64,000 bases of DNA from a phage: sequence record PZ386971.1, one strand, 5' to 3'. A program made the translations under genes and the position numbers. The notes beneath the pieces were generated by a model, which saw only the letters and a program-made list of their open reading frames with translations, did not search any database and was not told where the DNA came from. Position 1 is the first letter of the stretch, and every line of letters starts with the position of its first letter. Below, one piece after another: positions 41,321 to 42,341 of the stretch.

Positions 41321-41390
41321 GTTAATATTCACGCAAGTTCGCGCTCCACTTGGTCGCGCACCTTATAACACTAAGGTGTTAACTTTCTTT
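41321..41390. promoter_or_regulatory. nested inverted repeats (AGAAAGTTAA ... TTAACTTTCT; TAACAC-taag-GTGTTA) upstream of a strong promoter: candidate operator
   Basis: 10-bp arms flanking about 55 nt, inner 6-bp palindrome. Confidence 0.35.
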
Positions 41391-41404
41391 TCAATAAAAA
41401 GTAG

Positions 41405-41433
41405 TTTACATCTATGAAAATGCAGTATATTAT
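41405..41433 (+). promoter_or_regulatory. strong early promoter TTTACA-N17-TATTAT with A/T-rich upstream region
   Basis: Near-consensus -35 and -10. Confidence 0.6.
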
Positions 41434-41501
41434 GTTCTCACTACACAGTCAGAACAACAATATGCCGCGGATACGGTCTTAATAACGAAAGGGTTTTTAT
41501 T

Positions 41502-42341
41502 ATGTCATATATTCTTCATGTGGATTCTGGAACCAAAATTGAAATTGAAGGCAAAGACGTTGCTGCTATTCAGGCTGAAATCAAAGAAGCAGGTCTGATC
41601 ATCGGAAACGTTACCCTGCGCCGTATGGTTGAAGGTGTTCTTCAGGCTGCCAACGGCTTCGAACTGATTGAAGGTCTGAGCGCCGAAGAGAAGGAAGAAA
41701 CTCAGCAGGCTCTGGCGCAAGCCCAAGAGCAAGCCCAAGCTGAAGTATCCCTGAAAGTCGCTGAAACCGTTGATGCTGAAGCACCGATCTCTGCCGATGC
41801 ATGTGAAGCCCCAGTGTCCGACGCCCCGGTAGACGCGGTTGAAGATGCAGTCAACGCGGCGCTGGAAGAAGGCAATCAGCCGTCCGACGCGAAAATCGGT
41901 TCCTTAGCGTCTTCTATGCTGAAAGAAGCATCGAAGGGTAAGACCCTGACCCCGCAGGCAGCGCTGGTAGAGCGTAAACGCCGTCACACCAAACGTGAGG
42001 AAATGGTTGACTTGGCTCGCGCTTCTAATCACGGTCCGGTCTTGGCGGCGATTGAAGCTGGTGTTGTCCCCGGCGTGTTCCTGAGCTACGTGAACCCAGA
42101 CATGCGTTGGTTCCAGTTCCCGGTCACCGAACTGGCTAACCCTGAAAACCTTCACGCCCGCACCAATACGTATGTCGACGTTGCGCCTATCGTTTCCGGT
42201 GGCTGGGGCTTCAGTCTGTACGTGAACGGCAAGTCCTTCACCAAACGTCAGAAGATCAAAGAGTCTGATGCTGAGTCTCTGGTTAAGGCGATCAATGAAT
42301 GGCTTCCACAGGCTCTGGCTGAAGCGAAAGCTGCTGTGTAA
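41502..42341 (+). CDS. abundant acidic protein (279 aa), Ala/Glu/Asp-rich central region
   Basis: Strong promoter, optimal codons, AAAGGG RBS. Confidence 0.6.
   Translation: MSYILHVDSGTKIEIEGKDVAAIQAEIKEAGLIIGNVTLRRMVEGVLQAANGFELIEGLSAEEKEETQQALAQAQEQAQAEVSLKVAETVDAEAPISADACEAPVSDAPVDAVEDAVNAALEEGNQPSDAKIGSLASSMLKEASKGKTLTPQAALVERKRRHTKREEMVDLARASNHGPVLAAIEAGVVPGVFLSYVNPDMRWFQFPVTELANPENLHARTNTYVDVAPIVSGGWGFSLYVNGKSFTKRQKIKESDAESLVKAINEWLPQALAEAKAAV

Follow-up and report, generated by a model that had tools for sequence, protein, structure and literature searches.

A conserved early-promoter cassette for a two-domain protein with an acidic linker, next to the DNA-metabolism operon of an Agtrevirus-like phage

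The DNA studied here, the window, is a stretch of 64,000 nucleotides from a phage (sequence record PZ386971.1), and the subject is a gene in it, at 41502-42341, together with the expression signals around it. The gene codes for an acidic protein of 279 amino acids, here called protein X. An initial annotation, made by a model from the letters alone, described X as a strongly expressed acidic protein behind a near-consensus promoter and a possible operator, and took it for a candidate DNA-mimic anti-restriction or host-takeover factor. The 1.25-kb region around the gene is 98-99% identical to Agtrevirus-like members of the Ackermannviridae (Enterobacter phage fGh-Ecl02 and Escherichia phages YX22, PC3 and AV101) and about 90% identical to Shigella phage Ag3, with matches reaching Kuttervirus and Limestonevirus; judged by nucleotide identity the window is from an Agtrevirus-like Ackermannviridae phage. 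The features of the locus, and of a second cassette which carries a related gene, are the following.

41316-41388, + strand: compound hairpin, just 3' of the stop codon (41310-41312) of the gp2-orf249-orf93 operon
41389-41404, + strand: A/T-rich stretch TTTCAATAAAAAGTAG, immediately 5' of the -35 hexamer, a putative UP element
41405-41433, + strand: sigma-70-type early promoter, -35 TTTACA (41405-41410), 17-nt spacer, -10 TATTAT (41428-41433)
41433-41456, + strand: inverted repeat TGTTCTCACT/AGTCAGAACA, 9/10 pairing, overlapping the -10 hexamer and the predicted transcription start
41488-41493, + strand: Shine-Dalgarno-like AAAGGG, 8 nt 5' of the ATG, with A.G conserved
41502-42341, + strand: coding sequence of protein X, 279 aa, of the uncharacterised family phrog_3905
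41502-41681, + strand: N-terminal domain of X (aa 1-60), a small alpha/beta module common to X and its paralogue Y
41682-41966, + strand: acidic, largely disordered linker (aa 61-155) with a helix at 61-91 and a predicted local distance difference test score (pLDDT) of 43-73
41967-41999, + strand: Arg-rich motif VERKRRHTKRE (aa 156-166), local pI 10.8
41994-42338, + strand: C-terminal domain (aa 165-279), alpha-alpha-beta4-alpha
42369-42404, + strand: intrinsic terminator with a 13-bp GC-rich stem, the loop TAA and a T-run
23517-24106, + strand: cassette of paralogue Y, with the promoter TTTACT-N17-TATTAT at 23517-23545 and a 162-aa coding sequence at 23618-24106 (phrog_3764)

On the 5' side of X the neighbours are a gp32-like single-stranded DNA-binding protein (SSB), a gp54-like baseplate protein on the opposite strand, the DNA end protector gp2 and two hypothetical open reading frames (ORFs). 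On the 3' side follow a 5-hydroxymethyldeoxyuridine (5-hmdU) DNA kinase (PF18748, E-value 1.7e-108) and a thymidylate-synthase-like (TS-like) enzyme, which in these phages is the dUMP hydroxymethylase (PMC3184105), so that X indeed lies directly upstream of the modification module, as had been stated. After the TS-like enzyme come a deoxynucleoside monophosphate (dNMP) kinase, a MazG/dUTPase_2 enzyme, a phage ACT-like protein and UvsX.

Both the TTTACA-N17-TATTAT promoter and the A/T-rich sequence in front of it were found as described. With a score of 10/12 it is the top + strand sigma-70 match between 39 and 46 kb, and there is an alternative -10 hexamer, TATATT, at 41426-41431. It should be noted that the scan gave 10 sites where 7.9 were expected, so a match to the consensus is by itself not above chance; the promoter is credible because it is conserved in relatives and has been annotated in LIMEstone1. 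All seven aligned genera have TTTAC without change, with a TATAnT hexamer 15-17 nt further on, and Vibrio phages Kuja and VPALA as well as an Aeromonas-type contig have promoters of the GTTTAC type 5' of the X gene. In the GenBank record of LIMEstone1 the corresponding site is labelled “putative early promoter”, and the gene is followed there by a factor-independent terminator. The sequence TTTTCAATAAAAAG is identical in four genera and a related TTAT(T/A)GAAA is found in three more.

The -35 sequence GTTTAC resembles the early consensus of T4. The X promoter has in common with T4-type early promoters the UP-like A/T tract, the -35 and -10 hexamers and the use of host sigma-70 RNA polymerase. 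It differs from them in having no TGn before the -10, and the window has a set of its own which reads TTTAC(T/A)-N17-TAT..T; the T4 early promoters are very strong promoters of the UP/-35/TGn/-10 type (PMC2988021). The window has 14 matches to TTTAC-N15-19-TANNNT where 4.8 are expected; most of them are intergenic and have the form TTTACT-N17-TAT..T. Intergenic sites of the form TTTACT-N17-TAT(T/A)(A/C)T are found on the + strand at 584-612, 941-969, 3205-3233, 16363-16391, 30123-30151 and 49377-49405. Several of the TTTACT-N17 sites lie directly 3' of a GGGG/CCCC hairpin and form terminator-then-promoter pairs, and the sequence around 555-600 is repeated almost unchanged around 910-960. These sites are probably the early promoter class which the CBA120 and Ag3 papers could not define; the CBA120 paper reported that the ViI-like phages have no MotA, AsiA, Alt or ModA and that their early promoters were not definable (PMC3184105). 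Our literature searches found no transcriptome of an Ackermannviridae phage and no study of the X gene.

The nested inverted repeats upstream of the promoter had been proposed as an operator. They are present, with outer arms AGAAAGTTAA (41316-41325) and TTAACTTTCT (41379-41388) that are complementary in 10/10 positions, and an inner pair TAACAC (41366-41371) and GTGTTA (41376-41381) followed by a T-rich run. An inverted repeat with arms of at least 10 nt turned up in 17 of 1000 shuffles of the intergenic region (1.7%). The operator reading is not supported: among relatives with a conserved promoter there are some whose outer arms pair imperfectly and others that lack them, and the right arm ends 16 nt 5' of the -35 hexamer. 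Imperfect outer arms are seen in Ag3, RC-2014, SH19, EspM4VN and the Kuttervirus phages, which makes the perfect 10-bp repeat lineage-specific, and Taipeivirus, Miltonvirus and Nezavisimistyvirus have the promoter without the upstream element. RNAalifold retains only the inner hairpin, the loop of which varies, and a portion of a middle hairpin rich in GC; it gives no support for the outer 10-bp stem. The RNA of 41305-41400 folds into a three-way structure with a free energy (dG) of -26.4 kcal/mol (z -4.76), a stability reached by none of the shuffled sequences, and a terminator scan selects the inner TAACAC/GTGTTA hairpin. We therefore read the repeats as terminator-like, because of their position after a stop codon, the stable RNA fold, the T-run and a conservation limited to the inner hairpin; most likely the element is the terminator of the gp2-orf249-orf93 transcript. 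The position of the repeat at 41433-41456 is more operator-like, and it could be either an operator or a hairpin in the 5' untranslated region (5'UTR). Its TGTTC/GAACA core is, by inspection, kept in Kuttervirus. The RNA fold of the 5'UTR of X is not significant (z -1.3), and a search of Rfam over 41200-42500 gave nothing credible.

Downstream of X the terminator at 42369-42404 ends 2 nt before the ribosome-binding site of the kinase gene, and it folds with a dG of -22.1 kcal/mol (z -5.1). Its sequence hardly differs among five genera and can still be recognised in the Serratia and Erwinia phages, which makes seven genera in all. In eight more distant relatives the stretch of 55-63 nt that follows the X stop codon forms a GC-rich hairpin with U-runs in every case (8/8, z -2.6 to -6.2), and the stems of the Vibrio and Aeromonas types are unrelated in sequence. 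A covariation test over the seven genera found 88% of the cells paired, but 20 and 37 of 500 shuffles reached the observed values, which is not compelling; the test is weak because indels shift the stems between genera, and each sequence was folded separately instead.

The terminator contains a perfect extended -10 motif, TGCTATAAT (42377-42385), which spans loop and stem. TATAAT is retained within hairpins of differing stems in Serratia and Erwinia phages and in Vibrio phage Kuja (GGGACTGTATAATACAGTCCC; Kuja locus 6975-7005), and in the record of Ag3 the extended -10 at this site is annotated, as a -10 signal only. Judged by its layout, a transcript which starts at TGCTATAAT would be without the 5' arm of the hairpin and would escape termination, so that the element would combine a stop with a restart. 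The conservation of this motif inside the terminator makes it probable that the downstream operon is transcribed from a promoter of its own, so that read-through would not be required. The whole promoter-gene-terminator cassette is kept in the Vibrio and Aeromonas relatives at a protein identity of about 25-30%, which suggests that X is made at a level of its own, higher than that of the downstream enzymes and independent of them.

The acidic ORF and its Ala/Glu/Asp-rich centre are as the initial annotation had them. Protein X has a pI of 4.8 with 42 D+E against 27 K+R, and its central 95 residues are rich in A, E and Q (A22, E13, Q8, D6) with a net charge of -13. Compared with highly expressed E. 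coli genes (weights from the table of Sharp and Li, 1987) its codon adaptation index (CAI) is 0.507, above gp32 (0.457) and UvsX (0.451) and 4th of the 72 ORFs in the window (mean 0.351, sd 0.082). The codon usage had been called highly optimised; this is right as to the high rank, with the reservation that three ORFs score higher. One of these is Y, which is treated below. The two others, both on the + strand, code for a 92-aa protein at 6518-6796 with a match to phrog_379 (“DNA binding protein”; CAI 0.593), and for a 189-aa protein at 20190-20759 (phrog_4048; CAI 0.549). By position and equal length the latter would seem to be the counterpart of LIMEstone1 ORF080, which is a confirmed virion protein with a late promoter. 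Strong expression, as had been postulated, and early and independent expression are borne out by the conserved promoter, the conserved terminator on the 3' side, the high CAI and the detection of peptides by mass spectrometry in phage Sajous1.

Protein X matches the phrog_3905 profile over its full length (E-value 2.1e-135, 452 bits); members of this family are LIMEstone1 ORF047, CBA120 orf076, Ag3 orf00069 and Sajous1 gp29. Proteins 100% identical to X are present in public collections. In a collection of 5.8 billion proteins we found 225 homologues, none with a functional name, most of them unnamed and the rest “hypothetical protein”, and the majority encoded on contigs of about 150-160 kb; tblastn found X in 343 phage records (phages of Salmonella, Escherichia, Klebsiella, Dickeya, Serratia, Erwinia, Shigella, Enterobacter and Vibrio). 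An exhaustive HMMER profile search of 1.84 billion cluster representatives gave only 30 clusters, all of the same architecture and none with an informative domain fusion. As far as these sequences go, phrog_3905 is found only in the Ackermannviridae, and there in every genome examined. No sequence match was obtained in Pfam, NCBIfam or the PDB with the single sequence, a 41-member profile or member-wise Pfam searches at E-values up to 1, and a profile of the shared N-domain gave two trivial matches only in the collection of 5.8 billion proteins. MotA-like, UvsY-like and gp59-like identities were considered for X and dropped, as there was neither a sequence nor a fold signal.

The two ends of X and its middle evolve differently. 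Between X and its Kuttervirus counterpart the identity is 87% in the C-domain and 78% in the N-domain against 35% in the linker; for the replication proteins gp41, UvsX and gp32 the same comparison gives 88%, 78% and 78%. R160 in the Arg-rich motif is one of two residues that are invariant in the whole family, and W203, G233 and Y240 in the C-domain are near-invariant. The linker varies in length from 60 to 289 aa, and its net charge is negative in 40 of 41 relatives; one family member, P0137, has a neutral K/E/A linker. That the negative charge is kept while sequence and length vary points to selection on composition and not on sequence. The linker carries a short conserved motif, IGSLASSMLKEA, around aa 131-142 (GSLAADLV in distant members), and a hidden Markov model (HMM) of this motif matches family members only. 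In Enterobacter phage EspM4VN the X homologue (locus 609-1534) is annotated as two overlapping ORFs, gene_214 and gene_215, probably because the variable linker region contains a frameshift or was sequenced wrongly.

An AlphaFold2 model built from 17 sequences had a pLDDT of 71 and no significant Foldseek match in the PDB; in a model from 41 sequences both domains reach a pLDDT of 95-98 (with 91-97 given for the N-domain) and the linker 43-73. The weak top matches of Foldseek were acidic histone chaperones of the NAP/SET type (E-value 0.2-0.5, not significant). In the model the C-domain has a predicted two-layer alpha-beta-alpha fold of the secretion-chaperone/YbjN/PsiB-like class and can be superposed on members of it. 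This class contains type III secretion chaperones (AvrPphF ORF1, SicP, Spa15, ExsC, ShcA, SycH, SycN/YscB and InvB), the YbjN-family proteins AmyR, DR_1245 and DUF2170, the RecA inhibitor PsiB, the FP domain and the actin-capping protein. A profile search of PDB sequences and member-wise Pfam searches (E-value up to 1) gave no CesT, YbjN or PsiB match, and since profile searches show no sequence link we speak of a fold class and not of homology. The class is typical of small, usually dimeric protein-binding modules. To the type III secretion chaperones (CesT/SicP/Spa15/ExsC) and to YbjN/AmyR/DR_1245 there is no detectable sequence similarity, and X differs from them by its additional N-domain, the 95-aa acidic linker and the Arg-rich motif, and there is no secretion system nearby. 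The likeness to PsiB, the plasmid RecA inhibitor, and to T7 Gp1.2, the dGTPase inhibitor, is at the level of the fold only; these are single-domain proteins without a linker. A search of BFVD returned only uncharacterised members of the X family.

Ocr, ArdA and Arn carry their negative charge on a rigid folded surface which imitates B-DNA. X is like Ocr, ArdA and T4 Arn in being acidic, early and strongly expressed. When the predicted structure was inspected for a DNA-mimic surface, as the initial annotation had proposed, the charge was located in residues 61-155, at a pLDDT of 43-73, and not on a rigid fold. The folded domains are mildly acidic (pI 4.7 and 5.7), the linker with the charge is disordered and variable in length and sequence, and it is followed by an invariant Arg-rich motif. 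Furthermore, the Foldseek and BFVD searches gave no fold match of X to Ocr, ArdA or Arn, and X is a core gene and not an accessory one. The location of the charge, the lack of a fold match, the conservation as a core gene and the fact that the DNA is already hypermodified contradict the idea of a structured DNA-mimic anti-restriction protein.

The HMM of the X N-domain matches one other ORF in the window, that of Y (E-value 1.2e-4), and in a profile-profile comparison with hhalign the two N-domains align with a probability of 92% (E-value 4.9e-7). The C-terminal parts give a weak alignment over the central beta-hairpin (vdvsPlknGG.s.sL in X, rvqlNPLnNG.fSVMV in Y; E-value 3.5e-4), against E-values of 0.12-0.15 for the cross-domain controls, and the C-part of Y is possibly related to the C-domain of X. 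Y has neither the acidic linker nor the Arg-rich motif. Its CAI of 0.643 is the highest of the 72 ORFs in the window, and its promoter, TTATTGAAAAAGACTTTACT-N17-TATTAT, is of the same kind as that of X, with a terminator on the 5' side and a hairpin on the 3' side. These alignments make Y look like a paralogue of X that has no linker; its gene is flanked by the primase gene on one side and by the endolysin/PhoH/NrdAB genes on the other. Its LIMEstone1 homologue, ORF073, is not among the 39 virion proteins of that phage (PMC3296691).

The position of X is conserved over a wide range of phages. It stands immediately 5' of a block with the order [5-hmdU kinase] - [TS-like] - dNMP kinase - MazG-like - (ACT-like) - RecA/UvsX - gp41, not only in six enterobacterial genera (Agtrevirus, Limestonevirus, Kuttervirus, Taipeivirus, Miltonvirus and Nezavisimistyvirus), but also in Kujavirus (Kuja), Campanilevirus, Vibrio phages D493, YC and VPALA, and the 145-kb Aeromonas-type contig. 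In that contig X is part of a hypermodification cluster with an amino-acid:DNA transferase and a second kinase. The 5' neighbours vary and can be gp2 and two ORFs, a DNA polymerase, baseplate/lysozyme genes or a methyltransferase. The kinase is absent beside X in D493, YC, Kuja and apparently CRW-SP2, and in Kuja the TS-like gene is absent beside X as well; in terms of gene sequences, the content of thymidine-modification genes differs among the Ackermannviridae genera. X has no enzyme domain and falls outside the families of thymidine hypermodification enzymes (5-HMUDK, aGPT-PPlase and the pyridoxal phosphate enzyme). The 5-NeOmdU of phage ViI has been rebuilt in lysates and in vitro from gp67, gp160, gp226, gp243 and gp247 alone (PMC5889632). 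Since these five other proteins suffice, and since X is kept in Kuja, X seems to be tied to the DNA-metabolism operon and not to the modification chemistry.

From the gene, its promoter and terminators, its conservation, domain architecture, fold class, synteny and paralogy, all of which are directly supported, we infer that X is abundant, that it dimerises, that it works as an adaptor and which pathway it serves. The explanation we prefer, to which we give a probability of roughly 40%, is that X is a protein-binding adaptor which acts together with the adjacent operon for nucleotide supply, recombination and replication. X would be a non-enzymatic, non-virion protein, kept across all Ackermannviridae and made early in large, stoichiometric amounts. 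Host sigma-70 RNA polymerase would transcribe the gene from its own early promoter, and the terminators on both sides would insulate it, making its level independent of the downstream enzymes. The protein would be a tether, in which a long and flexible linker of negative charge, with short motifs in it and a basic motif at its end, connects two small and strongly conserved globular domains. The C-domain, preceded by the invariant Arg-rich motif, would be a protein-binding module, probably dimeric, and the end domains would bind partner proteins so that X could serve as adaptor or scaffold. The probable pathway comprises the dUMP hydroxymethylase, the dNMP kinase, the MazG-like NTPase, the ACT-like protein, UvsX and gp41, with or without the 5-hmdU DNA kinase, and Y probably shares one partner of X through the common N-domain. 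Three points weigh against the adaptor. Synteny in phages may reflect the timing of expression as much as a shared function; the conserved negative charge of the linker suggests a function as polyanion, which a pure spacer does not explain; and Sajous1 gp29, the X protein of that phage, was detected with 10 spectra in virions purified on CsCl (PMC10892097). As the same sample contained SSB (5 spectra), RegB (31), the TS-like enzyme, dUTPase and the clamp loader (PMC10892097), we read the X spectra as carry-over of an abundant intracellular protein, while a minor association with the virion is also possible.

The main rival, which we consider doubtful, is that X, and perhaps Y, neutralises a conserved host protein early in infection, for example RecA, an SSB partner, a dNTPase such as Dgt, RNA polymerase or a nuclease. 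It owes its place to the fold class of the C-domain, which also serves PsiB, T7 Gp1.2 and immunity proteins. The fold matches to these inhibitors are, however, weaker than those to chaperones, and a sequence relationship is lacking. Moreover, genes directed against the host or its defences are usually variable and accessory, whereas X is found at a constant place in every Ackermannviridae genome examined, and, over hosts from Vibrio and Aeromonas to Salmonella and Dickeya, always in the DNA-metabolism operon. It seems improbable that the linker acts as a polyanionic, DNA-like tail which competes with DNA for basic surfaces while the end domains provide specificity, be it as chaperone or regulator of a DNA-binding protein (as with gp32, T7 gp2.5 and the tails of histone chaperones) or as a decoy for a host nuclease. 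A tail of this kind would fit with the negative charge kept in 40 of 41 members over an unconserved sequence and length, with the adjacent invariant basic motif, which the linker could mask, and with the NAP/SET matches of Foldseek, non-significant as they are. Its charge density is modest, though (about -0.14 per residue), the carboxylates do not form a structured array like that of Ocr or ArdA, the linker is neutral in P0137 and missing in Y, and the phage DNA is already protected by hypermodification derived from 5-hmdU (PMC5889632).

Still more improbable is a role in the virion or its assembly, in which X would escort a packaged or injected protein in the manner of a chaperone, or would be a minor internal head protein. 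The Sajous1 spectra, the chaperone-like fold and the enterobacterial 5' neighbours gp2 and gp54 speak for such a role, but LIMEstone1 ORF047, the X protein of that phage, is not one of the 39 proteins detected in its virions (PMC3296691), the Sajous1 sample contained the intracellular contaminants mentioned above, and the promoter of X is early and not late. The structural 5' neighbours are also not kept in the Vibrio relatives, while the DNA-metabolism genes on the 3' side are. X was not among the six bands of Ag3 that were analysed. We give the smallest chance to a transcription regulator or antiterminator with a layout like that of lambda N, which would promote read-through or control its own promoter via the repeat at 41433-41456. 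The order promoter, gene, terminator, delayed-early operon would suit it, as would the Arg-rich motif and an inverted repeat over the transcription start, and antitermination has been suggested for phages of this type, which are without MotA, AsiA, Alt and ModA (PMC3184105). The conserved extended -10 in the terminator, by which the downstream operon would have its own promoter, argues against it; so do the high codon adaptation and the tethered two-domain architecture, which are unlike those of known antiterminators, and the lack of a transcription-factor fold match, of an Rfam or nut-like element and of a significant fold in the 5'UTR.

A more far-reaching version of the adaptor, in our opinion unlikely but less so than the polyanionic tail, would make X and Y a new class of abundant early scaffolds. 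A dimeric chaperone-like hub, with long polyanionic arms that end in a shared docking domain, would gather proteins for nucleotide synthesis, hypermodification and replication/recombination into a factory, or would chaperone DNA-binding proteins onto the hypermodified DNA. If this is true, the X/Y scaffold would be the Ackermannviridae counterpart of the coupling between dNTP synthetase and replisome in T4. If, on the other hand, the acidic linker is a true competitor of DNA, it would be a mimic of the disordered and not the structured kind.

The Ackermannviridae (ViI-like phages) are widely used in biocontrol and therapy. Of their genes 50-60% are uncharacterised (PMC10892097), and little is known of how they regulate early and middle genes and take over the host (PMC3184105). 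X is likely to have an important part in infection, because it is present in every member and its domains are as conserved as replication proteins; it also has strong early expression signals. The gene, annotated as a hypothetical protein, its promoter and its terminator were already public, and what is new is the arrangement of the domains, the class of fold, the finding that the linker is conserved in composition, the paralogue Y and the family-wide expression cassette. The X cassette and the terminator with the embedded extended -10 can serve as landmarks for mapping the early transcription programme of these phages.

Two observations concern genes close to X. The kinase gene (42416-43075, + strand) is called “terminase small subunit” in phrog_800 and in the RefSeq records of PhiSH19, Ag3, SKML-39, RC-2014 and VPALA; on a PF18748 5-hmdU DNA kinase this label is a propagated misannotation. 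The true start of the kinase is probably the ATG at 42416 and not the TTG at 42404. Two genes 5' of X, a hypothetical ORF of 249 aa (40267-41016, + strand) has 31% identity to its Kuttervirus counterpart where its neighbours have 65-91%, and judged by this rate such a fast-evolving ORF would be more typical of a host-interaction or anti-defence gene than X is.

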